DNA of 64,000 nucleotides from a virus (taxonomy: Duplodnaviria; Caudoviricetes): positions 1 to 64,000 of IMG/VR virus record IMGVR_UViG_3300013947_000024. The stretch is one strand, 5' to 3'. The position numbers and the translations under genes are program-made. Numbering within the stretch: the stretch's first letter is position 1; every line of letters starts with the position of its first letter. The notes beneath the pieces were generated by a model that saw only the letters and a list, made by a program, of their open reading frames with translations, did no database searches and had not been told where the DNA came from. This document shows positions 19,290-63,628 of the stretch, one piece after another.

Positions 19290-19295
19290 TTGAAT

Positions 19296-21218: not shown

Positions 21219-21227
21219 GGGCGCATA

Positions 21228-21946: not shown

Positions 21947-21981
21947 AAGTAGTTGACTTTTACGATTTTGTGTGATAGAAT
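21947..21981 (+). promoter_or_regulatory. SigA-type promoter (P3)
   Basis: AAGTAG-TTGACT 21953-21958, 17 bp spacer, TG-n-TAGAAT 21976-21981. Confidence 0.8.
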
Positions 21982-22370: not shown

Positions 22371-22589
22371 ATGAATAAAGAAATTTTTGAAGGACTTTCT
22401 ATCGACGAGCTTCAAACGGCTCTCGGAGTCATGGATTTTTGCGAAGAAGAGCATTTCGACGAAGAGCTTACTGAGGATATGATTGACTATAGTCTTCATT
22501 CTGATAGTGAGGAATGGTCTGATGGCAAGAAGTATTCGTCTATGAGCGAGTTCTGGAAGGAATTCAACGCGGAGGGTGATGGAGTATGA
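22371..22589 (+). CDS. Putative DinJ/RelB-like antitoxin lacking the RHH domain
   Basis: Small, acidic; C-terminal GKKYSSMSEFWKEF resembles the DinJ/RelB toxin-binding tail; ATGA overlap with the YafQ-like gene. Confidence 0.55.
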   Translation: MNKEIFEGLSIDELQTALGVMDFCEEEHFDEELTEDMIDYSLHSDSEEWSDGKKYSSMSEFWKEFNAEGDGV

Positions 22590-23758
22590 GAAGCATTGTC
22601 ATTTCTCCAAAGTTTAAGAAGCATTTGAAGAAGGTTGTCAAATACCCGAAATTCAATCAAAGCCTTCTTGACGACACGGTAGGAAAGATTCAGAACGGAG
22701 AGAAACTTGACACCAAACTTCGCGACCACGTGGCGTCTAAATCTTCCCCGAGAGAATTGCTGGGGACGAGAATTCTTCATCTTTCTCCGAACATCTGTAT
22801 GATCTACAAGCTGTCTGACGACGCGGTAACACTATTAGACATCGGCTCGCATCAAGACACAGGATTAACGGAGGACGCAATGAAATTTTTGTCAGTAGAA
22901 GCAAGCGATGATATTTTCGCAAAGGCAAAGCTCACAGAGGATGTTCTTACAGAAGACAAGGTTGTTAAATTCAACGGTCAGACAAATCCGCCCTATGGAT
23001 GGTGTGTGATTCTGTGCGGTGGCTCTGGAATCGGAAAGTCTACTGCGGCTGATTTGCTTGTTCCTATCAATGCAAGAAGATATGATGTAGACGCTCTTAA
23101 ATCCGACAGATTCTACAAGATTTCATATGATGGAGACGACCATACCATCACCTTTAACAATGGCGAGAGCTATGTTCTTGAAGACGAGGGCATCTTCGAG
23201 CCTTATGATATGCAGAATCCTGATTTTGTTAGTTGGCTTCATCAAAAGAGACGCCCTATGGCAAAGAAGCTAAAGAAGTCTATTTTTAAGGCGGGAGAGT
23301 ATGCCGACAAGGAGAGACTTCCTAATATTCTGTTTGACATCACAGGTAAGGATGTTGAGGATTTTGAATCTATCATTTCCGAAGTTAAGCCCATCGGTTA
23401 CAAGGTTGCTGTTGTGTGGGTTCTTGGAGAGATTAAACAGGCTATTTCACAGAATGAGAAGAGAGCAAGACAGGTACCTCGTGATGTGCTCTTGAAGGCT
23501 CATAGAGGCGTTTTCACTGCAATTGGTGATATTGCTATGGACGCCAAGTTGTTCTCGCAAATTGACGAATTCTGGGTCATTCTACAAAGCGTTTTCGATG
23601 TCGGCGACCCTAACGATGTAGACAGATACAGAAAGCTCGCCAATGTATATAAGATTGCGCGGAGAGGCGACGCGCTTATGCTACCCGACAAGGTTAAGCA
23701 GATGTACGACGACCAAATTCGCGAAATCGCAAAACTAATTTCAGAAAGGGAGGATTAA
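22586..23758 (+). CDS. YafQ/RelE-family RNase fused to a zeta-toxin/AAA_33-like P-loop kinase
   Basis: N-terminal ~95 aa has FKK..KK, RDH, R.LH..P...IY, GSH (YafQ). C-terminal part has GGSGIGKST, DVD, D.TG, N..R.R.VP. Confidence 0.75.
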   Translation: MRSIVISPKFKKHLKKVVKYPKFNQSLLDDTVGKIQNGEKLDTKLRDHVASKSSPRELLGTRILHLSPNICMIYKLSDDAVTLLDIGSHQDTGLTEDAMKFLSVEASDDIFAKAKLTEDVLTEDKVVKFNGQTNPPYGWCVILCGGSGIGKSTAADLLVPINARRYDVDALKSDRFYKISYDGDDHTITFNNGESYVLEDEGIFEPYDMQNPDFVSWLHQKRRPMAKKLKKSIFKAGEYADKERLPNILFDITGKDVEDFESIISEVKPIGYKVAVVWVLGEIKQAISQNEKRARQVPRDVLLKAHRGVFTAIGDIAMDAKLFSQIDEFWVILQSVFDVGDPNDVDRYRKLANVYKIARRGDALMLPDKVKQMYDDQIREIAKLISERED

Positions 23759-23761
23759 AAA

Positions 23762-23953
23762 ATGCAGAAAAATGATTGTGTATGTGTCCCGCATCTTGAC
23801 ATGGATGGTAAAATGACATTCACTGTGAAATGCGAGTCCGATCCGCTGTTTGCTGGATATGGAGATACTGTTGCTGAGGCAATTGACAATGCACACGCAA
23901 ACAAGCTTCGCCATCTTGAAGCGCTGAGCAAGATTAAAGACGAGGAGAAGTAA
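23762..23953 (+). CDS. HicB-like antitoxin domain (orphan)
   Basis: GYGDTVAEAIDNA matches the HicB GxTxEEAxxN motif; no DNA-binding domain. Confidence 0.6.
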   Translation: MQKNDCVCVPHLDMDGKMTFTVKCESDPLFAGYGDTVAEAIDNAHANKLRHLEALSKIKDEEK

Positions 23954-23955
23954 AG

Positions 23956-24189
23956 ATGGATCGCAAAAGAAACCTCACGATAAAGTATGAGACGCTTACT
24001 CACACCGATGGCAAACTCTACTACATTGTGAGATGCGGTGGCGTTGTTGGGTTCATTGGGAGCGGTGAAACATTCATTGAAGCCATAGAAAACGCGTATA
24101 CCAACGCTAAGAGACTTGAGAAAATTCTCAAGCGAAACAGGCTTAGAGGGAAACAAGAGCATGACAAACAACATTCGAGTAATTGTTAA
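23956..24189 (+). CDS. Second HicB-like antitoxin domain (orphan)
   Basis: GFIGSGETFIEAIENA. Confidence 0.55.
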   Translation: MDRKRNLTIKYETLTHTDGKLYYIVRCGGVVGFIGSGETFIEAIENAYTNAKRLEKILKRNRLRGKQEHDKQHSSNC

Positions 24190-24631
24190 GTACTACAATG
24201 TCAATAGCCGAAAAATCGAAGACTATGATGTTCTTCTTCGTAGGATGGATGACGTAAAGAAACTGAAAAAGAAGTCTCTTAACAAAGCGGGGTTCGCCGA
24301 TGCGCTTAAAAGAGAATTCATGTGGAGATTTTGGTCAAAAGCAGAGTGGGAGCTTATTGTCACCAAAACCGAGGAGGGTAGAATTATTCTATCACCTTGG
24401 TGTGGGTGCTCAGACCCCGATTCCGTAGCGATTGATGTCACGGATGATACAAGTTTCGATTGGGTTGGATTTGCGGATGAAAATATTCGCGAGCAGATTT
24501 TTAAGAATAAGGCAAAGATTGATATTTATGACCAGATTATGTACGGAGACAGATTTGCCAATCTTGTTGACGAATTGTGGCACACGCGACTTCGTTACGA
24601 GCGCGACAACCCTAAATTTCACGAGGTGTAA
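24161..24631 (+). CDS. Hypothetical phage protein
   Basis: FWSKAEWE and KIDIYDQI motifs; SD before ATG 24161. Confidence 0.6.
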   Translation: MTNNIRVIVKYYNVNSRKIEDYDVLLRRMDDVKKLKKKSLNKAGFADALKREFMWRFWSKAEWELIVTKTEEGRIILSPWCGCSDPDSVAIDVTDDTSFDWVGFADENIREQIFKNKAKIDIYDQIMYGDRFANLVDELWHTRLRYERDNPKFHEV

Positions 24632-24633
24632 GC

Positions 24634-24789
24634 ATGAGCGCGATGACAATCTTTTTAATCGTGATCTCTGCAGTCGTTGCTCTATGTGTTGTACTTGGCA
24701 CATGGTGCGTTATGGCAATTGCTGGTAGAGAATCAAGAATGGAAGAACAATTTTGGAAGGAGAATAACGAAGATGACAGAAGAGATTAA
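24634..24789 (+). CDS. Small single-pass membrane protein (51 aa, not in ORF track)
   Basis: MSAMTIFLIVISAVVALCVVLGTWCVMAIAG...; GAGGTG SD. Confidence 0.55.
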   Translation: MSAMTIFLIVISAVVALCVVLGTWCVMAIAGRESRMEEQFWKENNEDDRRD

Positions 24790-25072
24790 AAATGAAGCGG
24801 TGACAAATGAAAAAGAGCCGTATGTAGCAAGACTCTCTCACATGCAGTTGGACGTTTACCAGCAGAACGCGATTTGTTCTTGCGGTGGGTTTGTTAATGC
24901 GGTTGGCACGAGATCGGAAAACGGTACGACAGCATTTGTGAGCAGATGCACGAAGTGTGGGCATGAATACCTTCTTGCGTATGAATTCCCGAGACTTGTT
25001 TATCAGAGACGAGGAGATCGCGCTCCTGAAGATGTGATGCTTGGCAATCCGAACAAGAAGGTTGAGGAGTAA
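24773..25072 (+). CDS. Zn-ribbon protein
   Basis: CSCGG...CTKCGH; AAGGAG SD. Confidence 0.55.
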   Translation: MTEEIKNEAVTNEKEPYVARLSHMQLDVYQQNAICSCGGFVNAVGTRSENGTTAFVSRCTKCGHEYLLAYEFPRLVYQRRGDRAPEDVMLGNPNKKVEE

Positions 25073-25076
25073 AAAA

Positions 25077-25517
25077 ATGTCAAAGAAAAAGTTTTGGATT
25101 TTATCTCTTACATGGGGACTCCCCATGACCATTATCGGATTCTTTGCGTCCCTATTCCTACTGTGTACGGGACACAAGCCTGAATGGTTTGGCTATATGA
25201 TTCACTTCACTCTAAAATCTTCTAATGGGTGGGGAGTTAGCCTCGGACCTGTTATTATCACCACGAACGACTGCAAAGATGACATCGATATTCTCTCTCA
25301 TGAGTGTGGTCACTCCTCTTATCAGATGTTTTGGTTTGGGTGGTTCTTCCCGTTCATTGTCTCTATTCCTTCGGCTATCAGATTCTGGCATAGATACTAT
25401 CTACTGAATCATGGTAAGCATCTTTGGGAACTCACTCCGTACAATAGTGTGTGGTTTGAAAGAACAGCCACGGATTACGGCAAGAAATTTGTTGAAATCA
25501 TGAATAACAACGCTTAA
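25077..25517 (+). CDS. Membrane protein with HExxH metallopeptidase-like motif
   Basis: Two hydrophobic segments; HECGH and downstream FE..A. Confidence 0.6.
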   Translation: MSKKKFWILSLTWGLPMTIIGFFASLFLLCTGHKPEWFGYMIHFTLKSSNGWGVSLGPVIITTNDCKDDIDILSHECGHSSYQMFWFGWFFPFIVSIPSAIRFWHRYYLLNHGKHLWELTPYNSVWFERTATDYGKKFVEIMNNNA

Positions 25518-25522
25518 ACATG

Positions 25523-25559
25523 AAATCAGCTCGTCTTAAAAAGATGGGCTGATTTTTTT
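25523..25559 (+). terminator. Rho-independent terminator
   Basis: AATCAGCTCGTCT/AGATGGGCTGATT stem plus T run. Confidence 0.8.
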
Positions 25560-25563
25560 GTAA

Positions 25564-25598
25564 AAGTAGTTGACTTCTGCCTCTGAATATGGTACAAT
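25564..25598 (+). promoter_or_regulatory. SigA-type promoter (P4)
   Basis: AAGTAG-TTGACT 25570-25575, 17 bp spacer, TG-n-TACAAT 25593-25598. Confidence 0.8.
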
Positions 25599-25629
25599 AG
25601 AATCACCAAGGACGAAAGAGGTGTTAATC

Positions 25630-25812
25630 ATGAGGAATCCGCGATACTACGCGAAGAAGCAGAACAACAAGGGCTATCTTTACGACAGAGAATTCAGTGA
25701 TAATGTGCCGATGGCGGTTGAAACCACTTATGAGCTTGCAGAAGCCTACGCAAAGAGATACAACGAAGAGGAGGAATGGGATGATGATGAGTTTGACAGA
25801 GAAAATCGCTAA
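25630..25812 (+). CDS. Small hypothetical protein
   Basis: GAGGTG SD, first ORF after P4. Confidence 0.5.
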   Translation: MRNPRYYAKKQNNKGYLYDREFSDNVPMAVETTYELAEAYAKRYNEEEEWDDDEFDRENR

Positions 25813-26230
25813 CAAGCACAAAGGTTCTTTCGCGAGAATCTGTTATCAGGTGGAAGTCAAGCCTTCTGCCGCTAATTCCTCTCATACCATCAAGAAGGTG
25901 GCTACAACGACTGTTCGTGTCGGAGTGGCATATTCACACATTAAGAGCGTAAAAGAGCGTCAGAGCGAGTCTACGGGTGCCACAAGAGCACATTGGTGGA
26001 AGTGGGTTGATGGTCTTCGCAATATCATGAAGGAAAACCTGAAAGACCCCTCTAAGAAGTATTACACCTTCGCTACGGCAAGAAACGCACATACTCATAT
26101 TGATTACTTCGTAGATGGAAAGAATGCAACCGTAGAAGAAGTCAAAGCTCTTACCGTCCCTTCGTACTGGAATTCGAAAACAGTCGAGGTGTTCGATGTA
26201 AAAGCCGAAAACCTTCTGTGGGTCGCTTGA
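25787..26230 (+). CDS. Hypothetical basic protein
   Basis: Start approximate (MMMSLTEK). Confidence 0.55.
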   Translation: MSLTEKIANKHKGSFARICYQVEVKPSAANSSHTIKKVATTTVRVGVAYSHIKSVKERQSESTGATRAHWWKWVDGLRNIMKENLKDPSKKYYTFATARNAHTHIDYFVDGKNATVEEVKALTVPSYWNSKTVEVFDVKAENLLWVA

Positions 26231-26245
26231 TTGGAGGATATAGAC

Positions 26246-26446
26246 ATGTATAAGACTGGCGATTATGTGCGGTTCACAACCGATAGCATTCGCGAAAAAG
26301 ACGGAGAGCCTCACCCTACTGTTGGCACGGTTGGAAGAGTCATTTCAGTTCTTCGAAACACCAGAATTCTCTGCGTGAGACTGATCGACATTAAACAACC
26401 TCGAGACATCTGGTGGGTGCGAATGGACGATGTAGAGCCTGTGTAA
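26246..26446 (+). CDS. Small SH3/KOW-like beta-barrel protein
   Basis: YKTGDYVRF...GTVGRV; GGAGG SD. Confidence 0.5.
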   Translation: MYKTGDYVRFTTDSIREKDGEPHPTVGTVGRVISVLRNTRILCVRLIDIKQPRDIWWVRMDDVEPV

Positions 26447-26530
26447 CGGCAAAATAAACAAACAAAGTTAAAGAAAATCATAAATATCGGTTAATAATGA
26501 AGACTAAAACAAATAGTCAATAACACTCTG

Positions 26531-27541
26531 ATGGGAGCAGATATGAAAGAAGCACGCAGTAATATAGATGGTCATTCCACAAGAGGAGCATATAACTGTT
26601 ACGGCTATATTTCCAATAGCGTGAGATTTGATAAAGACAGAATGATTGTTAAATCTAAAAATCTCACAGAAGGAATTGATTGGGAAGTTGATAGAAGCCA
26701 ACTCGGCGGTATTATCGTTATCTCCACCGATGTAAATGCAATTAAGTTAAGTACCAACCAACTTAAAAACTGGATCAAACAGAAGTGGGAGACGCTTAAA
26801 AACAGAGTGTCTTACAACAAGAAGATTGACAGACTTTCCAAGAAGTACGGAGACATCTTCGCATGGACAATCGGAAGATATTTACATGGAAGATATAAAG
26901 CAGATAACGGCGCAGTGTTTGATGAGAATTCAATCTCTATCGAACTTCTTAATGTGCCAACAGATACAATCATTTCATTTGCAGAGGATCTGTGTTATGA
27001 CTTCTCACAGGAGACAGTTCTTGTAAAACTCTACGGAGAAGACAGAATCCTCTTCGTTAAACCCAAAACAGATTACAAATCCATTGATGGAAACAAATAC
27101 AAAGTAGAAAATCTTAAGGAGAATACACAAATGACAGAGCAGGAATTCAAAGATAAAGTAAAAGAGATTATCGAAGACATGGATAGAGGCGATCTTGTTT
27201 CCCTCTATAACGATTATGCGAGCGAGAATAACTACGAAGAAATTCACGACATGGACGATATTAACGATTATCTGAGTGGCATGGAGCCGAGAGATATTCT
27301 TAACAAAGCGTTCTACGGAGATTTCAATCCCTCTCATGATTACTTCAAGTTTAACGGCTATGACAATCTTGAATCCACTGATTACCCCGAAGACAGCTGG
27401 ATTGATAAAGATGAGCTTGCAGACTTCATTTTTGACGAGAAGGATGGCTCCTACTACGAATTCGATGATAAGATTCAGGAAGTCATTGATGAATACAACG
27501 GTTCTGACGAAGCAGATGCCGAAGAAGAGGATGAAGACTGA
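26531..27541 (+). CDS. Multidomain protein: SAM-lyase-like domain + acidic putative DNA-mimic domain
   Basis: IIVIS...GRY...DENS...AEDLCYDFSQETVLV resembles T3 SAMase (VLVS...GCY...EE...ARLACNEWEQDCVLV). C-terminal ~135 aa is highly acidic, with FNPSHDYFKFNGYDNLES. Confidence 0.55.
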   Translation: MGADMKEARSNIDGHSTRGAYNCYGYISNSVRFDKDRMIVKSKNLTEGIDWEVDRSQLGGIIVISTDVNAIKLSTNQLKNWIKQKWETLKNRVSYNKKIDRLSKKYGDIFAWTIGRYLHGRYKADNGAVFDENSISIELLNVPTDTIISFAEDLCYDFSQETVLVKLYGEDRILFVKPKTDYKSIDGNKYKVENLKENTQMTEQEFKDKVKEIIEDMDRGDLVSLYNDYASENNYEEIHDMDDINDYLSGMEPRDILNKAFYGDFNPSHDYFKFNGYDNLESTDYPEDSWIDKDELADFIFDEKDGSYYEFDDKIQEVIDEYNGSDEADAEEEDED

Positions 27542-27918
27542 TGACTCTCACATATAACTACGGCGGGGACATGGACATCTACGGAGAAGATTTTGAATAT
27601 GATGTAGACCCTCTTAAGGATGGAGTATACGGACAAATGCTTCAGGACGAGAGAGAAGAAATGATTCATATCATCTTCGACGAAATCCTTACCGATAAAG
27701 AAAAAGAAGAGATTAAAGCCTCGTTTGGAGAAGATGATTTTCCCGAAATCAAAACCATGGACGATGTAGTGAAGTGGTATACAGCTAAAGAAAACTCTAA
27801 AGAGGCTAATGAGCTTATTTCTGAATACGAAGAAGACTTAATGGAAGACAGTGACTGGTTCCACGATTATGTCTATGCGCAATATGAAGAAGAGGCAAGA
27901 GATGCCTACGAAGGATAA
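27541..27918 (+). CDS. Highly acidic protein, putative DNA mimic
   Basis: Very D/E-rich with aromatic residues. Confidence 0.5.
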   Translation: MTLTYNYGGDMDIYGEDFEYDVDPLKDGVYGQMLQDEREEMIHIIFDEILTDKEKEEIKASFGEDDFPEIKTMDDVVKWYTAKENSKEANELISEYEEDLMEDSDWFHDYVYAQYEEEARDAYEG

Positions 27919-27923
27919 AAAGA

Positions 27924-28778
27924 ATGATTAAGGTTGGCTCTGAAAATATTAACCGGATTATTGTTTCGCAAGATCAGGCGCAAACAGACCTACTTAGAGT
28001 GCTGAAGCCACAAAGCGTAACCGAAATCAATGACACAGATATGCTCTGGTTCGGTGCAAATTCGTATAAGACGGCATTTGCGAATCTACCAGAAACAGAT
28101 CGTGCATTGTATTTCAGTGGAAGAAGGACAGATACGACATATGGGTATACAACAATCCCGTCAAGTGGATTCGTTTTGGAATTTCCAAATGTTTCGACAC
28201 CATCTGGCACATCACAGCAGGGGGCATCGATATTTTCTGCTTGGATAGCTTTTGCACAACCGTATCAGTATCTCTCGGATGATTCTCAACCGAAAATTTC
28301 CCGTATAGGGGTCGTGATTGATGTCAGCTATGTTGGCACACAAACTCTAAACACGCTTGTGTATGTTAGGCGGGTTATGACTGACGGGACACAGACGGCA
28401 CTCGTAAGCGCGAACGACACAATATCTGCTGGCGGATCATTGTCTGCATCCTTGTGGATTGCCGATGATTTCAGAATAAGATCCACAATTGTAAAAAGAG
28501 AAAATGGTGCCACAAAGACTACGTTGTTGATTGGAGAAGCTCACGCGAATCAACTGTTTCCCGTCCCACTTCAATCCAAAAATCTTTCTGACGGAATATA
28601 TTCAATGATTGATGAAATTTCATTATACGGAATGAACAATCCAACAGCGAGATTCGCGGGGTATTACAAACCATCAAACATTGCAAGCAACTATATTCTG
28701 CGCAACTCAAGTAGCACAATTATCCTTAATGGAGTGTCGTTGGACGGGAGTATTGACTTTGAAAACAGAATCTACTAA
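27924..28778 (+). CDS. Hypothetical beta-rich protein, possibly virion-associated
   Basis: S/T-rich composition. Confidence 0.5.
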   Translation: MIKVGSENINRIIVSQDQAQTDLLRVLKPQSVTEINDTDMLWFGANSYKTAFANLPETDRALYFSGRRTDTTYGYTTIPSSGFVLEFPNVSTPSGTSQQGASIFSAWIAFAQPYQYLSDDSQPKISRIGVVIDVSYVGTQTLNTLVYVRRVMTDGTQTALVSANDTISAGGSLSASLWIADDFRIRSTIVKRENGATKTTLLIGEAHANQLFPVPLQSKNLSDGIYSMIDEISLYGMNNPTARFAGYYKPSNIASNYILRNSSSTIILNGVSLDGSIDFENRIY

Positions 28779-29316
28779 AAAGAAGAAAAAGAAATCTTCC
28801 CTCTATACCAATACAGGCTATGGAGATGTGGCATACGGATTAAAGATGTTCAATAAAGAGATGGGAAGTATTCCTGCTTCTGGTTCTTTCTTCTCTTCTG
28901 ATATAGGAAGTGTAGGAGGAATGATGGAAGATATTTCGGAAGATGACATCTTTTCTGAATTCATCCTTAAGCCAGCCACAGAATACATTGAGCAATTCTC
29001 GGAAGACGAAAATGAATATTCTAACATTAAGACTGAATATTCATGCGTTTCTAAGTTGCTGAATACGCCTATTAAAGACTTATTTGTTCTTTTAACAGAT
29101 GTTGACCTTACATCTACGCCGAATACTTACCGTACTTTCAGCGTGGTTGAGCGGTCGACAGGAGTCAGAATGAATAAATATACACACGATGAAATTAAAT
29201 TTGTCGAGGAAATTTCAAATAATTGCATAAAATATACATTTCCTTCGCATAAATATGCATTAGCTATGTTAAAAGCCTATGAAGAGGCGCAGAGGGGTAG
29301 GAGAGAAGACAGATGA
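28759..29316 (+). CDS. Hypothetical protein
   Basis: Start uncertain; poly-Lys then GD....MFN..MG...GGMMED. Confidence 0.45.
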   Translation: MKTESTKKKKKKSSLYTNTGYGDVAYGLKMFNKEMGSIPASGSFFSSDIGSVGGMMEDISEDDIFSEFILKPATEYIEQFSEDENEYSNIKTEYSCVSKLLNTPIKDLFVLLTDVDLTSTPNTYRTFSVVERSTGVRMNKYTHDEIKFVEEISNNCIKYTFPSHKYALAMLKAYEEAQRGRREDR

Positions 29317-31283
29317 GTAAATACAAATACAAGATTGACGGATATACGGATTTTGCAGAATATGCAATGAACCATGATGTATATCTTACAAAGGGATTAA
29401 GCTGGGTAGCAGACCCTAACGATATTTTGGTTTCCCATAGAGCTGTATTTGATATTGCGGATGATTCGGTTGTTTCGGAAGTGAACAATGGGATTAGGGC
29501 TAACAGAGAACAGTTTGAGCTTATTCCTATTACCCTTAGAGAGCCTTCTGATAATATGCACTCTTATAGAGGAGTAACATATCTTCAGGGATATAAGGCG
29601 AGATTAAAGACACAGAAGGGCGCCTCTTATACTTCTACTCTTAAGGAATCCTCTATTGGACGAATGAATCAGCATTTGACCGAGGATAAGAATTTTGCCA
29701 TTGTTTCTCCTTGTAAGAACGGAGACAGCAAAGAAGAACACAAGAAGAATCTCGCAAAACTTAAAAACGAAGTATATAACAAATATGGACTCGGATTCAT
29801 CGAACTTATCTCTAAATGGGTAGATGAAGATGGGAATGTTTTTGATGAATACGCTTTGTTTATCCCTAACATGAGCAAGAAGGTAGCAATGAAGCTCGGA
29901 GAAGAATACTCCCAGTGCTCTGTTATTGTTTGTGATGATGGGAAATGCGAGGAAATTTGTACTACTCCTTTTGATACATACAATGTCGGAGATACAGTAA
30001 GAACATTTAATCTTTCCTCCGATATTCCGATGAATATTACTCTTGCAAAGTCCATTCTCGATAAGGGCAATATGGGCGCAGTGAGTGTTACGAGAAAAGG
30101 AAATGTCCCGTTCCATCTTTCAGAAGTATTAGAGGTAATTCCCGCTAAGGCTTCTATGTTTGAAAAAGAAGAGAGATACAACAGAATCTATTGTGAAGCA
30201 TTCTCTATTCTCCCTATTGGAAAGAATACAGTCGCCAAGAAGGTTATCAAGGAAGAGCTTAAAGAGAAGTATAATCTTGATTTGTCTAATCTTGATTCTA
30301 CTAACGGAATTGTGTACGGTCTTTCTAAGAAGAGAGCAATTAAGATATGCGAGAAATATTCTCTCCCTTATACAATTCATTGTGATGGCTATAAGGCAGA
30401 TGTTGTTTGCACTTCTACCTTCGATGGCTTTGTAGAAGGCGACAAGCTGTCTTCTTTTAATGTTCCCTTTGATGGCAGTAAGAATATTACCGAGAGTGTT
30501 GTCGCTCGTTGTAGCAAGTTCTCACGCCTCGTGGAAGGTCTTGAGGAAAGTAAGAGATATAGAAAGGTTCAGAAGAGCCTTTATGGCGATCCGAATGGAA
30601 AGATCAAGACGTTTGCCATTGTCTCCCCTGAAAATCCAGAGGGTGCTCTTGGAGACAAGAAAGACCCTAATTTCAAAGAGAATTATCTGAACTACCTCGT
30701 AGATAAAGACAAGGGGCAATTTGATGGCAAGACAAGAGAAGAGCTCGCCACAGGAATCAGACGAGAGGGAGACAGAATCTTTCATATCGGCAGACTTCCT
30801 TATGTGCGATTGATTGGAGAATATGACGGGAGAGAAGAATCTTATATGATTTTTAATCTCACCCCGAGCGATGCTTTTAAGATTGCTCACGCATACGGGC
30901 AAGAGAGCTTTTTCTTCGGACATGTTTTTGAAGACCATTCTGATATTGCCTATTACAAAACTACGAACTTCTGTAAATCATATCGACTTGTTGAAGTATC
31001 GCAGACGGTATCGGATGAGACTAAGGCGGATAATTACTTCTCTAAGTTTGGAGCGAAATTCAAGATTAACATGAATGAATTTGATGATGTGGTCCCAGAA
31101 GTCAAGAATCCATCTGCTTTTGATGCTTCTCTGTCGGAGGGTTTGTCATATATGATGAAAGCCGAGGCGAGAAAGCACATACCGTATGATACGCCAGAGG
31201 ATTTCAGAGAAGAATATAGTGTATTTAATCATGTAACGCCGTATGAAAGGAAAGAATTTCCTAAAATTTTCATTAGACGGTAA
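29313..31283 (+). CDS. Protein with three tandem SAM-lyase/DUF3293-like domains
   Basis: FAIVSP...W...DE...LGEEYSQCSV; a degenerate copy; FAIVSP...GEY..REES...AHAYGQES. Internal duplication CTTPFD...GD...FN...NIT vs CTSTFD...GD...FN...NIT. Confidence 0.55.
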   Translation: MSKYKYKIDGYTDFAEYAMNHDVYLTKGLSWVADPNDILVSHRAVFDIADDSVVSEVNNGIRANREQFELIPITLREPSDNMHSYRGVTYLQGYKARLKTQKGASYTSTLKESSIGRMNQHLTEDKNFAIVSPCKNGDSKEEHKKNLAKLKNEVYNKYGLGFIELISKWVDEDGNVFDEYALFIPNMSKKVAMKLGEEYSQCSVIVCDDGKCEEICTTPFDTYNVGDTVRTFNLSSDIPMNITLAKSILDKGNMGAVSVTRKGNVPFHLSEVLEVIPAKASMFEKEERYNRIYCEAFSILPIGKNTVAKKVIKEELKEKYNLDLSNLDSTNGIVYGLSKKRAIKICEKYSLPYTIHCDGYKADVVCTSTFDGFVEGDKLSSFNVPFDGSKNITESVVARCSKFSRLVEGLEESKRYRKVQKSLYGDPNGKIKTFAIVSPENPEGALGDKKDPNFKENYLNYLVDKDKGQFDGKTREELATGIRREGDRIFHIGRLPYVRLIGEYDGREESYMIFNLTPSDAFKIAHAYGQESFFFGHVFEDHSDIAYYKTTNFCKSYRLVEVSQTVSDETKADNYFSKFGAKFKINMNEFDDVVPEVKNPSAFDASLSEGLSYMMKAEARKHIPYDTPEDFREEYSVFNHVTPYERKEFPKIFIRR

Positions 31284-31297
31284 GAGAGGATAAATAA

Positions 31298-32065
31298 ATG
31301 GACGAAAGAGATACTTTTTTTGATAGTGGATATGAGTGGGAAATCACTTCTATCCTAAGAGAAACCGAAGGTCAAGACTCCGATGGTTGGCTTACCAACT
31401 GGCTCGTTGTCGAGGCTAAGAACGAAGACGGAGATAAGAAATATTTCGTCATTGAAGAGGACGCTGGCTATGCAGATTGGGGTCCTCTTGATACCCCCAA
31501 GGAAGCTATTGAGTGGCTTCTTCACAAATGGGATAATGTAGACGAAGATGAGAAGGAATATGATGATGATTATATTCCCGAATCAAAGTGTGAAGAGTGC
31601 GAAGAAGATCTCGCTCTTGATGATGTGGAGATTGACGACGCCTTCATTAACAGTCTTTCTGATACCCCCGTTGTGACTGCTGAAGTTGTAGAGGAAGAGC
31701 CGAAGGAAGATAAGCCTCCTCAGACACCCAAAGAGAATGGTCTTGCTACCACTCTGAATAAACTGATTGTCGGAGAGCTTGATACAATCAACGATTATAA
31801 TGCGGCTATCCAGCAGTGTAAGGATTGGGGATTTGAAGACAAGATTCCCTCTCTTGAAGATATCGTTAAGGAAGAGCATGTTCACATCGGTCAGCTTCAG
31901 GAGCTTCTTAAAACTGTTTCCTCTAACGCCAATGCTATTGAACAGGGCGAAGAAGAGGGAGCTAAACAGATTGCAAAGGCTGAATCGGAAGATGATATTC
32001 CCATGATTTACGCTAACGACAACGATGTCTTTGTGGATGCGGAAGACTTTGTAGAAATTGACTGA
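31298..32065 (+). CDS. Acidic protein with C-terminal ferritin/rubrerythrin-like domain
   Basis: GELDTINDY...DIVKEEHVHIGQL (E...Y / EExxH). Confidence 0.65.
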   Translation: MDERDTFFDSGYEWEITSILRETEGQDSDGWLTNWLVVEAKNEDGDKKYFVIEEDAGYADWGPLDTPKEAIEWLLHKWDNVDEDEKEYDDDYIPESKCEECEEDLALDDVEIDDAFINSLSDTPVVTAEVVEEEPKEDKPPQTPKENGLATTLNKLIVGELDTINDYNAAIQQCKDWGFEDKIPSLEDIVKEEHVHIGQLQELLKTVSSNANAIEQGEEEGAKQIAKAESEDDIPMIYANDNDVFVDAEDFVEID

Positions 32066-32077
32066 GGAAATTCTTAA

Positions 32078-32112
32078 AAGTAGTTGACAAACAATCCCTC
32101 TTGTGATACAAT
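32078..32112 (+). promoter_or_regulatory. SigA-type promoter (P5)
   Basis: AAGTAG-TTGACA 32084-32089, 17 bp spacer, TG-n-TACAAT 32107-32112. Confidence 0.8.
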
Positions 32113-32134
32113 AGAACCATAGGAGGGATTTTTG

Positions 32135-32617
32135 ATGAAACTCGTACACACCGACCATCTTTTAGAGATGGCGAATATTCGCGGGAAGGATATGAAGAGA
32201 GAGGATATTCACTTCTCTTTCTTCTTCTCGCGCAAATATCCTAATCACGCTCCCAGAATCAAGATTTGCTGGAACAGAGAAAAGATGACTCATGATACAG
32301 GTAATCTTGAAATTCATGGTGATTACGCCTATACACAGGATTCTTCTTGCAGGTATAAACCAGATACGGTTGATATTGCTACGGCTCGGTATTTTGCAAA
32401 GAAGTACAAAGTCCTTTTGACTGCTGTATGGGAAGAGAAACTCGACCCTAACGATTTGATCGACTGGTTCAGAGAGAGAATCGGCTGGAAGGAACTTATG
32501 AGTTGCTTTGTCAATATCGACCCAACCATGTCAAGACTTCTTCTATGCGTAGCGCCGAGTGTGAGTAATCTGGAGCTGTTTGTACGCGAGCACAACCTTT
32601 GGAATCTATACGACTAA
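32135..32617 (+). CDS. DUF4160-like protein (LxEMAN...H.PRIK type)
   Basis: HLLEMAN followed by NHAPRIKI. Confidence 0.45.
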   Translation: MKLVHTDHLLEMANIRGKDMKREDIHFSFFFSRKYPNHAPRIKICWNREKMTHDTGNLEIHGDYAYTQDSSCRYKPDTVDIATARYFAKKYKVLLTAVWEEKLDPNDLIDWFRERIGWKELMSCFVNIDPTMSRLLLCVAPSVSNLELFVREHNLWNLYD

Positions 32618-32636
32618 TTAAACAGGAGATATAATT

Positions 32637-33356
32637 ATGAAACTTCTTAAAGAAGAGAAGCTCGACAGAAAGCAGATTGCTATTGAAGAGCTTGCCAAGA
32701 AACTTGAACTTGACCCGAAGACGCTTAAGGCGGAGGAAGAGCGTTCGGATAATCAGTACATCTACTATACCGTAGAGACGGAAGACGGTGAGAGATATGT
32801 GGTAGCAGATCATGTAACAGCGGAAGATCTTGCCAAGTCAGATGTTAAATCCGTTGTTGATGACCTCGGTATTGAATCTTTTACGAAAGAGTATCAGAAA
32901 AAGATTTTCGATAAATTCGCAGATGAAGAGCCTTTTCGTCAAGCGTTTGATGAGTCGTATCGTTCTTATATTGAAGATATTAAGAGCGAAGATGACGACG
33001 AGTACGAAAATCGTTTTGTAAGAGAGCTTGTTGAAAATGAGATTGTCTCTGATGATGATCTTGTGGAAAACGAAGACGGACTTCTTGCTCTGAAAGAAGA
33101 CGCTGATGAAGACGACCTTGTTGACCGCTTTGTTGACGCTATGGCTAATGCGTGGAATTATGATTATGTCAATTGGATGAAGACTGAATTTGGTCTTGAT
33201 GAAGTGACTCGTTTTATTAAAGAGACCGACGCTGTTGATTGGGACGCAGTTGCCAAGGACGCTGTTGATGTTGATGGCATTGCTCATTTCGTAGCCTCTT
33301 ATGACGGCGAAGAGCTTGAACTTGGCGCTGATCTTTACGCATACAGAATTGACTAA
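32637..33356 (+). CDS. Highly acidic protein, putative antirestriction/DNA mimic
   Basis: D/E-rich; DGIAHFVASYDGEE; starts MKLLKEE. Confidence 0.5.
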   Translation: MKLLKEEKLDRKQIAIEELAKKLELDPKTLKAEEERSDNQYIYYTVETEDGERYVVADHVTAEDLAKSDVKSVVDDLGIESFTKEYQKKIFDKFADEEPFRQAFDESYRSYIEDIKSEDDDEYENRFVRELVENEIVSDDDLVENEDGLLALKEDADEDDLVDRFVDAMANAWNYDYVNWMKTEFGLDEVTRFIKETDAVDWDAVAKDAVDVDGIAHFVASYDGEELELGADLYAYRID

Positions 33357-33374
33357 AATAGAGAGGGAGAAACA

Positions 33375-34100
33375 ATGAAACTTAATAAAGCAATTAACGA
33401 AGCCATGGAAGCGAAGCCTTTTGCTATCAGAGAGCCGAAGGTTATTGCGGCTGACAGACAGTCCTATGTAGTGGCTGTTGACGACATCAACAAGGCGGCA
33501 GATGAAGCAGAGAAAGTGAATGCAGAGCTTGAGAAGACCATCGATGATTCTATTGTCCCGAAGGTTACTAAGGCAATGGAGGATAAAGTCCTCTTCCGTA
33601 AAAAGCTTGATGAATCCCTCTTTGACGGCGAAAAGAAATCCGTTGTAGAGAGAATCATGATTAAGCCCAAACGCAAAATTGAAGAGTCGAAAGTTGAAGA
33701 GGAAGTACTCGAAGAGAAGAAGAAAGAGATCGAAGGCGTCCCCGAGGATGTATGGACTGTTGCTTATGACAGACTTTTCCCTGGTAACCGTTTTAAGAAG
33801 CCTCTTATCGCACAGGACATTAAGAAGCAGTATGACCCTTCTCAGTATTATAAGACGGCTGGCTCTATTCATGACATCGGTATCTTTGTGGAATCTCCTG
33901 AAGACGCCGACCTTGCCAAGAAGGTAGCCGACGAGCTCCTGCTTATCAGCACAAAGCCGAAGAAGGTTGACGAAGACAAGTATGCGGTTGTTATCAGAAT
34001 CACAGAGGACGATTTCAATCTTCCCTTTGAAGAGTACTGCAAGAAGTATGGTCTTGATTATTCCGCTATCATTCCTGTCGCTTCTTCTACCAAAGACTAA
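33375..34100 (+). CDS. Hypothetical protein, probable head-internal/core protein
   Basis: Multiple L/I/M-x-E motifs in the N-terminal half. Confidence 0.45.
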   Translation: MKLNKAINEAMEAKPFAIREPKVIAADRQSYVVAVDDINKAADEAEKVNAELEKTIDDSIVPKVTKAMEDKVLFRKKLDESLFDGEKKSVVERIMIKPKRKIEESKVEEEVLEEKKKEIEGVPEDVWTVAYDRLFPGNRFKKPLIAQDIKKQYDPSQYYKTAGSIHDIGIFVESPEDADLAKKVADELLLISTKPKKVDEDKYAVVIRITEDDFNLPFEEYCKKYGLDYSAIIPVASSTKD

Positions 34101-56038: not shown

Positions 56039-56087
56039 AGGCGGATTGCTGAATTAGAGCAACAAAATCTAATAGGCAATCCGCCTT
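56039..56087 (+). terminator. Hairpin/terminator-like element
   Basis: AGGCGGATTGC...GCAATCCGCCT stem. Confidence 0.5.
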
Positions 56088-56122: not shown

Positions 56123-58105
56123 ATGCGCATCAGATTAACAGAAACATACCGTTTACACAAGGATATCGGCGAGAAAGACAATCATGGAAACCAACTGACC
56201 AAAGAACAGAAGATCTTTTTCAAGAATAGCAAGGTTCGCGATCAAGATGGCAGACTTCTTGTATGTTATCACAATACAAACGCGGACTTTCAAACATTTG
56301 ATACGCAGAAACAGGGAAGTCGTTTTACTGGTAATCTTGGCAACGGATTTTATTTCACGCCATATAAAGATCAGGCGGATTATTATGGTGGGAAATATAC
56401 GATGGAGGTATATCTTCTCGCCACCAATCTGTTTGACACCAACAGCCAAGAAGATATGGAAAATTTGCTTAGAAAAAATCAAATTGTGTATGATAAAAAA
56501 GCGGTACGCGATGCTATGCAAAAGGGCATGGCAACAAGAAATATTTTGCAGTCTGTCGCAGACTATCGCACGCACACGGGCAACATCAACGACGATTTTA
56601 TCGAGCTAATCATGCGTGCTGGATATGACGGTGTTGTAAATGGCGTAATAGGCACTAATGAAGAATATATGGTTTTTGAACCAAATCAGATTAAATCCAT
56701 ATCAAACACAAACCCCACTCATTCTGACAATATAAACGAATATTTTGGATCGTTGAAAGAATCCTATCTTAACGAAGACATTGACGGAATGAGAAAGTTC
56801 TATCCCAATATCGAAGACGATGCCTTTATGACGTTCATAGAGCTTGACCCTACATATACGAATGGTTCTACAAACGCAGGAAAATACGCCCGTTGGATTC
56901 TTGGGCTCGCCAACAAGGGAATGGGAAAGATTGAAAATATTTCGCACCTTTCTGACGCTCTTCGTAGATTTGACGAAGTTCGTAACGACCTCATCAACAA
57001 AGACGTTATGAGATACAAGAGCGTACAGGAGCTTGAGGACGCACTTAACGCGCCCGAATCATACGCGGAGAAATCTCATAGACAAGAGGTTCGTGGTAGA
57101 CAACAGGCTCGTAAAGAAGCCGATATTACCAAAGACGCTGATATTGTATATCAGGATGCTACATGGACTGTGTATGTACCAAAAACCTATGCGGCTTCTT
57201 GCAAGCTCGGTCAGGGGTCTAAATGGTGTACAGCAAGTACAGAAAGCGATTATTATTACAATTACTACCTTTCTGCATACCCCGACTCCAAATACTACAT
57301 CGTTATCAATAACTCTAACCCAGATGAGAAATATCAACTCCATTTTGAAAGCGGTCAGTTCATGGATAAAGATGATGAGCGCATTCACGGAGGAATTGAC
57401 GCATTTAAGGAATATAAGGGGCTGTATGAATTCTTGAAGGGATTGCAGGCATCTCTGTTCTTGAATCAAATCGGAGTCTCAGCAGAGGAAAAAGAATACG
57501 AAGTGAAGATTACTCACGCGGATTTAGCAGAAGCGCTTAGCGACAACTATAGTCGCGACGCGCTCGGAGCAGATGCCATTCGCAACATACTGGATGGGAA
57601 TGCGTGGGACTTGTTTGATGGGTTTAGCAATTTACCCAGAGACGAAATACAGTCCGTATACGACTACGAGATTAGCTCTGAAAATCTGCAAAAAATCGAA
57701 GAGCTTGGAGCAACAGAAGAGTCTATCTTTGACGATAGGGATGATGTGTATTATGCCATTGGTGGCGCCCTTGCTGATGCTTTGCTTGACAACGCGGTAT
57801 CCAACATCGAACGATCGGTGGAAAGTGGGATAGAGGAGGCAATGCCAGCATGGGCACATATCGACGATATTGGGTTTGGATACAAGAAGTCCACATTCAC
57901 AGTCGACACACAAACCTTCAAGGATGCTGTTTCAGACATCATGAACAACTATGACACTGATGCAATGGGGTCTTTAGAGGAAGTACTTCAAAATGTCATT
58001 GACAACAATAGCAACGGAATTTACTACGAAGATGACTATGACTACGACAAAGACACATTTAACGCATTGCTCGCTGACAACCTTTCGGAATTAAAACCAC
58101 AGTAA
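56123..58105 (+). CDS. Polyvalent protein: ART-PolyVal-like ADP-ribosyltransferase + WCT-motif (PcfJ-like) domain + acidic tail
   Basis: SKVRD.DG.LL..YHNT, GFYFT, GYDGV, EYMVFEPNQIKS; linker LKESYLNED; VYVPKT..ASC..G.GSKWCTA. Confidence 0.7.
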   Translation: MRIRLTETYRLHKDIGEKDNHGNQLTKEQKIFFKNSKVRDQDGRLLVCYHNTNADFQTFDTQKQGSRFTGNLGNGFYFTPYKDQADYYGGKYTMEVYLLATNLFDTNSQEDMENLLRKNQIVYDKKAVRDAMQKGMATRNILQSVADYRTHTGNINDDFIELIMRAGYDGVVNGVIGTNEEYMVFEPNQIKSISNTNPTHSDNINEYFGSLKESYLNEDIDGMRKFYPNIEDDAFMTFIELDPTYTNGSTNAGKYARWILGLANKGMGKIENISHLSDALRRFDEVRNDLINKDVMRYKSVQELEDALNAPESYAEKSHRQEVRGRQQARKEADITKDADIVYQDATWTVYVPKTYAASCKLGQGSKWCTASTESDYYYNYYLSAYPDSKYYIVINNSNPDEKYQLHFESGQFMDKDDERIHGGIDAFKEYKGLYEFLKGLQASLFLNQIGVSAEEKEYEVKITHADLAEALSDNYSRDALGADAIRNILDGNAWDLFDGFSNLPRDEIQSVYDYEISSENLQKIEELGATEESIFDDRDDVYYAIGGALADALLDNAVSNIERSVESGIEEAMPAWAHIDDIGFGYKKSTFTVDTQTFKDAVSDIMNNYDTDAMGSLEEVLQNVIDNNSNGIYYEDDYDYDKDTFNALLADNLSELKPQ

Positions 58106-59045: not shown

Positions 59046-59290
59046 CGCACGCGTATTTACGCGCATGACCCGTCTAACACTTCGTCTCCTTTTGATACGG
59101 AGAAAATGAGCAAAATACACGAAATGCTCTCCAACCACGACTAAATCTAATAGTGGCTCTTTACGAGTCAAACAACCAAGAAGCGCGCATTGCACGGTCT
59201 GGAAATCATACAGCCTCCCCTTACCCGCCTTCTTGTTGTAATACACAGGATCGCGGGTTTTTCTTATTCCAGAGGAAAGGAGGAAACAAA

Positions 59291-61738: not shown

Positions 61739-63628
61739 ATGTCGAAACTTACTGAAGACGGAGTGAACAACGGCGCGCCTTCTGTTTTTGAAACAGACGA
61801 CAAGGTGTACAACAATCCGATTAAACCTATTCCTAAACCAGCAAAGAATATCGGTATTGATACCGAGGGCGAATTTTATGACAACCTAATTGAAGCGGGT
61901 GAGTCTGGAATTCTTGCTACAGCAAATATTGAACGCTTTTCTCAAGTGTCCGATATGCGTAATCAGCTTTATAACATGATGGATAGCATGATGTCAGACC
62001 CAATCATTTCGACTGGCGTTGAGATTTATGCGGAGAACTGCGCAGAAGCGAATGATAGAGGACATGTGGTATGGGCGGAGTCAGAACAGAAAGAAGTGGC
62101 TGATTATGTCAACCATCTGCTTGATGTTATCAATGTGGATAAACACGCGTACACATGGATTCTTAGCTTAATTAAGTACGGCGACCTTTATCTCCGACTT
62201 TACAGAAATTCAGAATACAACGGTTCAATCTTCAAAAAGAAAGAAAAAGAGAGACTACAAGAGCAGGTCAACATTAAGGCGTACAGCAAGAACGATAAAT
62301 ACGCAAACTATGTAGAGATGGTGAAAGACCCGTCCGTCATGTTTGAGCTTACGAGATTTGGCAAGACAGAGGGGTATATTGAGGCGTCAAACCCTACACA
62401 GATGTATGAGGGTTCCCAGCTTACAGATAACTATGTCAAATTCCAGTTTAATAGTGGAGATGTGAATATCTACGAGGCGACAGAATTTGTTCATGCCTAT
62501 CTTGCGGATAATTCTTCTCGTTATACAGAAACTGTGAATATCGCCAATGGAGAAGACGGCAGGGAATATGAGTATGCTGTTCGTAAAGGAAAGCCAATGC
62601 TCTACGACTTGTACAAGCTATGGAGACAGCAAACTCTTCTTGAAAGCTCTGTGATTCTTAACCGTGTAACCCGTTCGGCTATCACTCGTATTCTTTCCGT
62701 TGATGTCGGAGATATGCCAAAAGATCAGGTACAGAAGCGACTCTCCAAAATCAAGGCTCTCATTGAACAGAAGTCTGCTATTCGTCAGGGCGATGGAATG
62801 ACTGATTATACCGACCCGAGTCCCATCGAGAATATTATTTATCTTCCTGTCAATGGGGAGAAGGGTGCTATCCAGCAGTTGACCATTGGCGGAGATGTGA
62901 ATGTGGGCGACCTTACAGACCTTGATTACTTCAAGAACAAGTATTACGGCGCTCTTGGTATTCCGAAGCAGTACCTTGGTGATACTGGCGATTCTGCTGG
63001 ATTCGACGCTGGTTCAAGCCTTGCACAAATTTCTTCGCAGTTTGCAAAGAAGGTCGGAAGAATTCAGGATTCGTTCATTCAGGCTATCGAAGAGCTTGTT
63101 AACCTTATGCTCCTTGACAGAGACCTTGGCGGGTATATCAATAAGTTTTCTATCAAGATGGTTTCTCCTGCAACGAAAGAAGAAACGGATAGACAGAATA
63201 ACGCCGTTGCTCGTGTTAGCTTTGCAACCGATGTCGTGAACGCCGTAAGTAATGTCATTGACGATGAGGAGACAAGGCTGAAAGTTCTTCGCGCTATGAT
63301 GACCAATGCGGTAGGCGAAACAGAGGTTCCTGCCATTATCGACGAATATATCACTCGCAGAGACGCAGAGATTGCCGAGGACGAGGCAAAAGGCGAAGAC
63401 GAGGGTGAAGATACCGCCGAAGAGGAAACGCGCGAGGAAGAGCCTGTAATGCCCGTTGGAGGCAGTGCTCTTAACAGAGGTATCGGCAGAGCGCCTTTCG
63501 GAGCAGAAGAAGAGACAGAGACGGAAGTATCGGTAGAAGCTCCTGAAGCTCCAGAGGAAAGAGAAGAGACAATTCTTCCTACGCCCGCAGAGCTTAATTT
63601 AGACTTGACAGACAACAGCGAAGCGTAA
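61739..63628 (+). CDS. Portal protein, T4 gp20-like
   Basis: KYGD.Y, LE.S..L.R.TR....RI..VDVGDMP, DLDYF..K.Y.ALGIPK; acidic tail. Confidence 0.88.
   Translation: MSKLTEDGVNNGAPSVFETDDKVYNNPIKPIPKPAKNIGIDTEGEFYDNLIEAGESGILATANIERFSQVSDMRNQLYNMMDSMMSDPIISTGVEIYAENCAEANDRGHVVWAESEQKEVADYVNHLLDVINVDKHAYTWILSLIKYGDLYLRLYRNSEYNGSIFKKKEKERLQEQVNIKAYSKNDKYANYVEMVKDPSVMFELTRFGKTEGYIEASNPTQMYEGSQLTDNYVKFQFNSGDVNIYEATEFVHAYLADNSSRYTETVNIANGEDGREYEYAVRKGKPMLYDLYKLWRQQTLLESSVILNRVTRSAITRILSVDVGDMPKDQVQKRLSKIKALIEQKSAIRQGDGMTDYTDPSPIENIIYLPVNGEKGAIQQLTIGGDVNVGDLTDLDYFKNKYYGALGIPKQYLGDTGDSAGFDAGSSLAQISSQFAKKVGRIQDSFIQAIEELVNLMLLDRDLGGYINKFSIKMVSPATKEETDRQNNAVARVSFATDVVNAVSNVIDDEETRLKVLRAMMTNAVGETEVPAIIDEYITRRDAEIAEDEAKGEDEGEDTAEEETREEEPVMPVGGSALNRGIGRAPFGAEEETETEVSVEAPEAPEEREETILPTPAELNLDLTDNSEA

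Follow-up and report, generated by a model that had tools for sequence, protein, structure and literature searches.

The internal head proteins of phage T4 are led by a short capsid-targeting sequence, MKTYQEFIAE (PMC8442874), in which residues 4 and 7 serve targeting and residues 8 and 10 serve processing (PMC9026906). Other described systems that bear comparison are the polyvalent proteins (Iyer et al. 2017, PMC5512222), the head proteins of phiKZ-like giant phages (PMC9026906) and the phage S-adenosylmethionine (SAM) lyases. The present analysis concerns a motif-rich accessory block at 22371-34100 (+ strand) of IMGVR_UViG_3300013947_000024, the record of an uncultured Caudoviricetes phage. 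The window is the first 64 kb (64,000 nt) of this linear record, whose length is 129,560 bases and whose completeness is estimated at 83%. A first-pass annotation had described the block as a candidate anti-defence polyprotein system, packaged in the capsid and cut at [LI]xE linkers (leucine or isoleucine, any residue, glutamate). As presented below, this picture of a 'polyprotein system' is overstated, and the mechanism could plausibly apply to a part of the block. We infer that some block proteins are head cargo, a favoured but tentative reading that is put just short of an even chance. The main new evidence consists of the leaders of a kinase family represented in the block and the association of this family with S77 proteases.

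The kinase forms the C-terminal part of a fusion protein, listed here with its boundary motif; open reading frames (ORFs) are named by their first position.

22586..23758, + strand: 390-residue fusion with a YafQ/RelE-like ribonuclease (RNase; residues 3-91), a disordered linker (89-121) and a P-loop kinase (122-390).
22931..22954, + strand: LTE-DV-LTE, residues 116-123 of ORF 22586, at the kinase-domain boundary; the family-wide [LI]xE-D-K motif.

Two unrelated effector domains are joined in this chain, a YafQ toxin domain (PF15738, 44.1 bits against a cut-off of 30, residues 3-91) and a Zeta-like kinase (PF06414, 26.5 bits against a cut-off of 22.3; phrog_5268, E 3.7e-31), for which the closest solved chains, 2ga8 and the Clostridium Pnkp kinase domain, are weak matches. 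In the AlphaFold2 model the predicted local distance difference test score (pLDDT) is below 50 for linker 89-121 and 78-96 in the kinase, which is confidently modelled from about residue 122. Three of the nine [LI]xE motifs of the protein lie in the disordered linker, and LTE occurs at residues 94-96, 116-118 and 121-123.

A profile search of 1.84 billion representatives returned a kinase family of 1803 members (E up to 0.001). Stand-alone homologues were present in 214 phage records; among the records listed, all 25 of 25 were phages of 170-236 kb, and the two that were opened were Straboviridae. In 116 of 163 aligned family representatives, [LI]xE stands exactly at the start of the kinase domain. 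The 147 short leaders contain 127 further [LI]xE motifs, compared to 48 +/- 6 in shuffles, and the density of the motif is 5.2 per 100 residues in leaders versus 0.75 in kinase bodies. In some members the kinase stands by itself; in others it follows other N-terminal domains, and [LI]xE marks the junction. Leaders in the phage's own group follow the pattern MKFKLLKE..LLxE-DK, with MKILKE also seen in relatives, and those of T4-like phages include MKSFKQFTE-STLTE, MKKFSEFITE, MKKFSEFIKLEE and MKTFLEFFQQITE. In the T4-like leaders, position 4 is aromatic and position 7 is Phe (His in one); position 8 is often bulky and hydrophobic, and a Glu follows at 9-14. Judged by these positions, the leaders read like the T4 capsid-targeting sequence.

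Among the cultured phages with a kinase homologue are the Slopekvirus phages phT4A, KP15 and KP27, Aeromonas phage 65 and Cronobacter S13. Two members of the family are annotated as 'hypothetical' in cultured T4-like phages. One is a P-loop kinase of Escherichia phage phT4A (ANN86490.1, L008:3082-3921), with a leader beginning MKSFKQFTE; the other is that of Aeromonas phage 65 (gene 65p142, L009:2995-3843), with a leader beginning MKKFSEFIKLEE. Both kinases are predicted to be internal head proteins, and no published report of them as such was found. When a back-translated pattern was used to look for other proteins with the kinase-type leader in these two phages, no clear set emerged, and the 'capsid and scaffold' genes adjoining the phT4A kinase are without such a leader.

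The second part of the main evidence is the prohead protease. The S77-protease profile PF03420 was above cut-off in 16 of 19 kinase-bearing IMG/VR records and in 11 of the 11 that were at least 90% complete, as counted among kinase-bearing contigs only and without a size-matched control. The phage itself has a head module of T4 type, with the following genes.

61739..63628, + strand: T4-type portal (PF07230, E 1.1e-40).
Genome 64681-66204, just past the window: 507-residue protease-scaffold fusion of gp21 type (phrog_207, E 4.6e-33), its protease domain at about residues 1-190.
Genome 66229-67578, just past the window: Gp23-like capsid protein (PF07068, 57 bits).

A gp21-like protease had been expected downstream of the portal, and one is present there by phrog_207, PF03420 and tblastn matches. 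The protease-scaffold fusion scores 24.8 bits on PF03420, slightly below the 27-bit cut-off, and tblastn with it reached 445 phage records, 'prohead core scaffolding and protease' genes among them; a PDB sequence search with the protease domain as query gave no match. By these matches the phage is taken to encode a gp21/S77-family prohead protease. The same fusion has the highest [LI]xE enrichment of any protein in the genome (19 versus 8.4 expected). In the capsid protein, LNE at residue 51 lies N-terminal to the Gp23 core, a position that would fit a T4-like propeptide. An HNH homing endonuclease was also noted between the capsid gene and the neck genes (genome 67705-69201).

All motifs named in the first-pass annotation were found in the sequence at their described places. 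By whole-protein shuffles, the ratio of observed to expected [LI]xE is 1.43 in the block compared to about 1.17 genome-wide. As a local control, which corrects for Glu-rich patches, residues were shuffled inside 20-residue blocks, and a cluster was defined as at least two motifs within 12 residues. The results were as follows.

Accessory block: 59 motifs versus 42.5 expected (P 0.0075); 13 clusters versus 5.1 (P 0.0025).
Head/neck/tail module: 142 motifs versus 121.7 (P 0.015); 21 clusters versus 13.0 (P 0.03).
Replication region: 94 motifs versus 80.4 (P 0.05); 10 clusters versus 8.2 (not significant).

No cluster excess was found in the remaining two genome regions by local shuffles. Among the genome regions compared, cluster enrichment is therefore confined to the block and the structural (head/neck/tail) module, and Glu-rich composition alone does not account for the excess, which survives this control. 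Conservation was compared with two syntenic relatives, L005 (~74% identity) and L007 (~45%). In 18 block orthologue pairs, [LI]xE was kept in 53 of 83 cases (64%) versus 227 of 494 (46%) for nine control motif classes ([LI]xD, [LI]xK, [VM]xE and others); in ten pairs of control genes, the corresponding values were 64% and 61%. The better retention of [LI]xE is modest in size and specific to the block. The excess of [LI]xE is real, and we think that it is best explained by prohead loading and trimming of some of the proteins.

An alternative is that no block protein is packaged and that all are ordinary early cytoplasmic proteins made from incoming DNA, as are T3 SAM lyase and T7 Ocr. The motif excess would then come from amphipathic helical linkers, retained ribosome-binding sites and N-terminal motifs of the kinase and SAM-lyase folds. 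This is a serious possibility, rated somewhat below an even chance. It leaves unexplained why enrichment after local shuffling is limited to the block and the structural module. It also gives no account of the better retention of [LI]xE than of [LI]xD, [LI]xK and [VM]xE, which is seen in the block and not in control genes, or of the capsid-targeting-like leaders of T4-like kinases and the association with S77 proteases.

Several observations weigh against packaging, and part of them favour the alternative of ordinary early proteins. The excess of motifs in kinase leaders reflects in part one conserved consensus and not many independent events. Usable virion proteomes of kinase-bearing T4-like phages (Slopekvirus) were not found in the literature, and a canonical T4 late promoter lies upstream of only 1 of 48 T4-like kinase genes. 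Per protein, the only outliers among block ORFs are ORF 22586 (9 versus 3.4) and ORF 29313 (14 versus 6.5), and the larger block proteins encoded by ORFs 26531, 27541, 31298 and 32132 have no motif excess. ORF 22586 starts MRSIVISP, without a leader at its own N-terminus, and the first [LI]xE of ORF 29313 is at residue 75, with none in the leader position. Short N-terminal leaders had been listed among the examples of the motif; of 167 genome proteins, 37 (22%) have [LI]xE with Glu at residue 5-15, as do 4 of the 17 block proteins, which is only the background rate and a further point for ordinary early proteins.

A 282-residue early-region protein outside the block (genome 115117-115965; L004:117-965) has 11 [LI]xE versus 2.9 expected, an internal repeat (FYPRGRV...) and no Pfam match. 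It is either a counter-example or a further substrate; being as enriched as any protein, it can be counted on the side of ordinary early proteins.

The junctions within two fusion proteins give further support to that alternative. The features concerned are listed below.

22870..22882, + strand: internal GGAGG and ATG (Met99, MKFLSVE...) in ORF 22586, where the kinase gene formerly had its ribosome-binding site and start.
26531..27541, + strand: 336-residue fusion of an N-terminal module (weakly SAM-lyase-like, residues 117-187) and an acidic module (201-336, phrog_4534).
27116..27133, + strand: internal AAGGAG and ATG (Met201) in ORF 26531, encoding LKE of NLKEN.

Two motifs that had been read as linkers, the first LTED of ORF 22586 and NLKEN of ORF 26531 (residues 194-198; NLTEG lies at 44-48), are encoded by ribosome-binding sites retained before old start codons. 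The first LTED is TTA ACG GAG GAC, which includes GGAGG five bases 5' of the Met99 ATG; stand-alone kinase homologues begin MKFK..., and the whole old kinase leader is preserved within the linker. LKE of NLKEN is CTT AAG GAG, which includes AAGGAG nine bases 5' of the Met201 ATG, and the acidic module is a stand-alone 134-residue gene in L005 and L007, starting at the Met equivalent to residue 201. Because these junction motifs are Shine-Dalgarno relics before an old ATG, ORFs 22586 and 26531 are stop-codon-loss fusions, and each may yield the downstream protein separately as well as the fusion. Such fusions are recent, specific to their lineages and have retained their start codons. The domain-start motif of the kinase can be read in a similar way. 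E123 and D124 are invariant across the family, a conserved K-x-V-K-F also follows the motif, and the invariant pair is placed where the confidently modelled kinase fold starts; the motif may therefore belong to the fold, as ordinary early proteins would predict.

Two further genes of the block are the following.

29313..31283, + strand: 656-residue protein with an N-terminal domain (1-98) and three SAM-lyase-fold domains, A (128-233), B (297-383, degenerate) and C (433-590).
31298..32065, + strand: 255-residue protein with a ferritin-like segment at 152-218 (PF00210, 30.3 bits).

The first-pass annotation had counted SAM lyases among the cargos and named a SAM-lyase-like domain in ORF 26531. 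For ORF 29313 the SAM-lyase label is supported by fold. DUF3293 (PF11697) matches at 33.1 bits (cut-off 25), and in a relative's protein DUF3293 and Pfam S-AdoMet_lyase (PF23780) match identical residues. The AlphaFold2 model has a mean pLDDT of 58, with 70-88 in the domains, and shows the same fold twice in good form and once degenerate; by Foldseek, the domains match T3 SAM lyase 8bb1_E with probability 1.00 and Svi3-3 6zm9 with 0.97. Motifs resembling Y-x-Q-x-S are seen in domains A and C. ORF 29313 is thus confirmed as a protein of SAM-lyase fold, with putative SAM-lyase activity. ORF 26531 reaches 13.5 bits on PF23780 (E 0.073, below threshold) and, by BLASTP against the relative's SAM-lyase domain, an E of only 1.5; the label is not confirmed there.

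The motifs of ORF 29313 are LKE at 110-112, LTE at 122-124, LSE/LE at 269-274, ITE at 392-394 and LVE/LEE at 406-412, and its clusters fall within low-confidence linkers that join the domains. Conservation at these places is uneven. LTED, previously proposed as a junction motif, is unconserved and varies to LTDD or LTGD in homologues, whereas [LIM]-x-E-[ST]-S before domain A is conserved and Glu412 before domain C is invariant. E-[ST]-S is kept with its flanks before each SAM-lyase-fold domain, including in two-domain proteins of another lineage, and this also favours ordinary early proteins. Several homologues are without the first 110 residues and start M-x-N-[IL]-K-E-S-S. The conserved Glu before domains A and C would be compatible with a cut site and also with an N-terminal fold element.

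The interpretation given by the first-pass annotation is that the whole block encodes swappable cargo polyproteins that are matured in the head and injected before gene expression. The motif clusters in low-confidence linkers and the enrichment at the level of the block agree with it, and so do the modular chains of relatives: the kinase alone or behind varied domains with [LI]xE at the junction, the stand-alone acidic module, and a 978-residue L007 protein (P0008, L007:10001-12937) in which SAM-lyase-fold repeats and a Pfam S-AdoMet_lyase domain are joined to the ferritin-like protein. Against it, the SAM-lyase/ferritin junction of the L007 chain reads GRENKKKM, keeping the old start Met without [LI]xE. 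The expectation that domains swap at the motifs in relatives is accordingly borne out for the swapping of modules and not always for its place. The variable LTED, the four larger proteins without enrichment and the recent, lineage-specific fusions with retained start codons also argue against this interpretation, as do the block's lack of hallmark polyvalent-protein domains and its distance of 28-39 kb from the portal.

A further objection concerns the linked domains themselves. In the published Svi3-3 and T3 structures, SAM lyases are reported to be trimers with active sites between subunits, and because of this the three SAM-lyase-fold domains of ORF 29313 may need to remain in one chain. 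On balance, a fully developed system of this kind is considered decidedly unlikely. A further proposal is that the kinase family of about 1800 members is injected cargo with a T4-style leader, extended here to protease-jointed chains (RNase with kinase; SAM-lyase with ferritin-like protein) that are cut in the capsid, so that SAM depletion and RNA attack precede phage expression; we regard it as unlikely. On the favoured reading the block is no dedicated polyprotein factory; certain junction motifs arose from ribosome-binding sites or are parts of domains. What stands of the packaged-polyprotein claim is the protease, the composition-controlled excess, the retention of the motif, the kinase leaders and the fusions.

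The remaining ORFs described in the block are as follows.

22371..22589, + strand: acidic 72-residue ORF, its stop overlapping the next start (ATGA).
27541..27918, + strand: very acidic 125-residue ORF without motif excess.
32132..34100, + strand: three adjacent ORFs (161, 239 and 241 residues) starting MKL..., with [LI]xE by residues 6-12.

ORF 22371 has no Pfam match, including to a DinJ-type DNA-binding antitoxin such as might lie upstream of a YafQ domain, and its L005 orthologue is 73% identical; it is a possible inhibitor partner of the RNase. The three adjacent ORFs carry the leaders MKLVHTDHLLE, MKLLKE and MKLNKAINE, and both L005 and L007 conserve these MKL leaders. In ORF 32637 the fold core begins at about residue 10-13. 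For ORFs 32637 and 33375 no function was obtained from the ESM Atlas, nor from PHROGs for most block proteins. Pfam bears out the labels YafQ, Zeta/AAA_33 kinase, ferritin-like and ART-PolyVal; the 'DNA mimics' label had acidity as its sole basis.

The timing of block expression can be judged from promoter-like elements. A host-type promoter, AAGTAGTTGAC[TA] followed after 17 bases by TG-n-TA-n-AAT, occurs in 13 copies, all intergenic and all on the + strand (window 4727, 13179, 21947, 25564 and 32078; genome 96290, 98205, 108799, 111309, 111992, 118067, 120200 and 125772). Three copies serve the block.

21947..21981, + strand: block promoter 1 (AAGTAGTTGACT, 17 bases, TG-n-TAGAAT), directly 3' of a terminator-like hairpin.
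25564..25598, + strand: block promoter 2, host-type.
32078..32112, + strand: block promoter 3 (TTGACA, 17 bases, TG-n-TACAAT; 11 of 12 matches).

No host-type promoter occurs between 32132 and 96290, and the structural module has none. The positions are kept in L005 and L007, where the variants AAATAGTTGAC and CTACTTGAC stand at matching places, and these promoters probably mark early transcription units. A second element, GC-r-AC-w-AAATCTAATAG (17 bases), precedes the holin-like, ART, terminase and protease genes and one tnpB (window 35385, 56065 and 59143; genome 64171 and 100500), and both L005 and L007 retain it ahead of the holin-like gene. The element may act as a late promoter or be related to insertion sequences; at 56065 it falls within the loop of a hairpin of 10 bp. 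Judged by these elements, expression seems to be early for the block and late for the ART gene.

All promoters of the block are of host type and the AAATCTAATAG element is absent from it, which counts against packaging, and ordinary early proteins would be expected of three positionally conserved promoters that drive the block like the replication and small-ORF regions. The T4 genes ipI, ipII and ipIII are classed 'early-RNA_late-Protein' (PMC9697503 supplement). Because the T4 ip genes are themselves early RNA, early promoters count only weakly against packaging, and their use as strong evidence was dropped. Arguments from late promoters were likewise dropped: the T4 late promoter TATAAATA has two copies in this genome, both intragenic, and is as scarce before T4-like kinase genes as stated above.

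Nearer to the head genes, other candidates for packaging were encountered.

56123..58105, + strand, outside the block: 660-residue ART-PolyVal protein (PF18760, 78.2 bits, residues 40-199).

ORF 56123 begins with the leader MRIRLTE and has three [LI]xE (INE/LKE/LNE, 204-218) directly C-terminal to the ART domain; about 440 residues lie besides that domain, and the AAATCTAATAG element is upstream. It is a candidate Alt-like cargo, and a better candidate than most of the block. Its middle module (residues 227-421) is shared by a 908-residue protein on a 171-kb viral contig (L102:2911-5637), which lies 3' of an NrdG-like gene and starts MTFLNE-ILDRIE-FEQLLE, with three motifs in the first 19 residues. 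In the head-neck gene run, adjoining a head-tail adaptor gene, two modular ORFs of 780 and 605 residues (genome 70494-74643) both have N-terminal [LI]xE, the first with 19 motifs versus 12.4 expected. By position, these two are better candidates for packaging and processing than the block.

Nearly all genes lie on the + strand. Replication genes, then NrdD and NrdG (19290-21701), precede the block, and a holin-like gene, tail-fibre genes, a TnpB element, ORF 56123, terminase and the portal (61739) follow it in this order; the terminase ORF (59153-61723) has a weak intein-splicing match (PF14890, 22.2 bits). Neither megablast with the block nor tblastn with ORF 29313 gave matches in 50,697 phage records, and IMG/VR single-sequence scans with ORF 29313 and ORF 22586 were likewise without matches.

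Taken as a whole, the block is a conserved accessory region of a phage with a T4-type head, expressed from three host-type promoters and probably serving counter-defence or host take-over. Its proteins are built from independent modules (YafQ RNase, P-loop kinase, SAM-lyase-fold, acidic and ferritin-like) that fuse and split between relatives, mostly via stop-codon loss. According to the favoured reading, some of these proteins would enter the prohead and be trimmed there by the gp21-type protease, in the manner of T4 internal proteins and Alt; loading, cleavage and injection we infer, with the kinase as the best candidate cargo and the three MKL-leader proteins as weaker cases.

If the kinase family is capsid cargo, the T4 rule of loading by leader and protease would extend to a large enzyme family in T4-like and related phages, and a simple sequence rule would become available for spotting injected effectors in uncultured phages. 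Should the SAM lyases or the RNase enter as protein too, counter-defence would set in before the DNA is met by restriction systems and other SAM-dependent defences. Were no block protein packaged, the data would still document a conserved early accessory block and stop-codon-loss fusion with a retained ribosome-binding site, and they would caution that Shine-Dalgarno relics can mimic L-x-E sites.

Compared to known systems, the domains of ORF 29313 share the fold of phage SAM lyases (T3 gp0.3, Svi3-3; PF23780) and DUF3293. Unlike these, the protein has three linked copies, one degenerate, with extra N- and C-terminal parts, and its SAM-lyase activity is a prediction. The phiKZ-like giant phages (phiKZ, 201phi2-1, SPN3US) resemble the present case in that head proteins are cut after Glu in a three-residue motif, with redundant propeptide sites (PMC9026906); their ejection and inner-body proteins differ in having the motif S/A/G-x-E, genes placed with the head genes and demonstration by mass spectrometry, compared to an early accessory block here. 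With polyvalent proteins (PMC5512222), the block shares unrelated effector domains in one polypeptide and predicted entry with the DNA, and ORF 56123 has an ART-PolyVal domain near terminase and portal. In contrast to that class, the block lacks the hub domains metallopeptidase, ArdC-N and MuF; YafQ, Zeta-like kinase, DUF3293 and ferritin are unnamed in that paper, and processing would be by the head protease and not by a built-in peptidase. Hallmark domains together with a portal/terminase neighbourhood were found for ORF 56123 only, which alone belongs to the class by domain, the block proteins lying 28-39 kb upstream of the portal.

The closest comparison is with IPI, IPII, IPIII and Alt of T4. 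Unlike these, the block candidates have no leader common to all, are large multi-domain enzymes and not small basic proteins, and are known from sequence alone; the protease is fused to the scaffold, and putative sites are not confined to the end of a 10-residue leader but also fall between modules. The likenesses are as follows. The phage has a T4-type head and a gp21-family protease. There are short N-terminal leaders with [LI]xE at their end, and the cargo-like proteins are predicted anti-defence or host-modifying enzymes. In ORF 56123 the ART domain is flanked by motifs on either side, which recalls the cutting of Alt at both ends (PMC9026906), and the block genes, like the T4 ip genes, lie in early-transcribed DNA.

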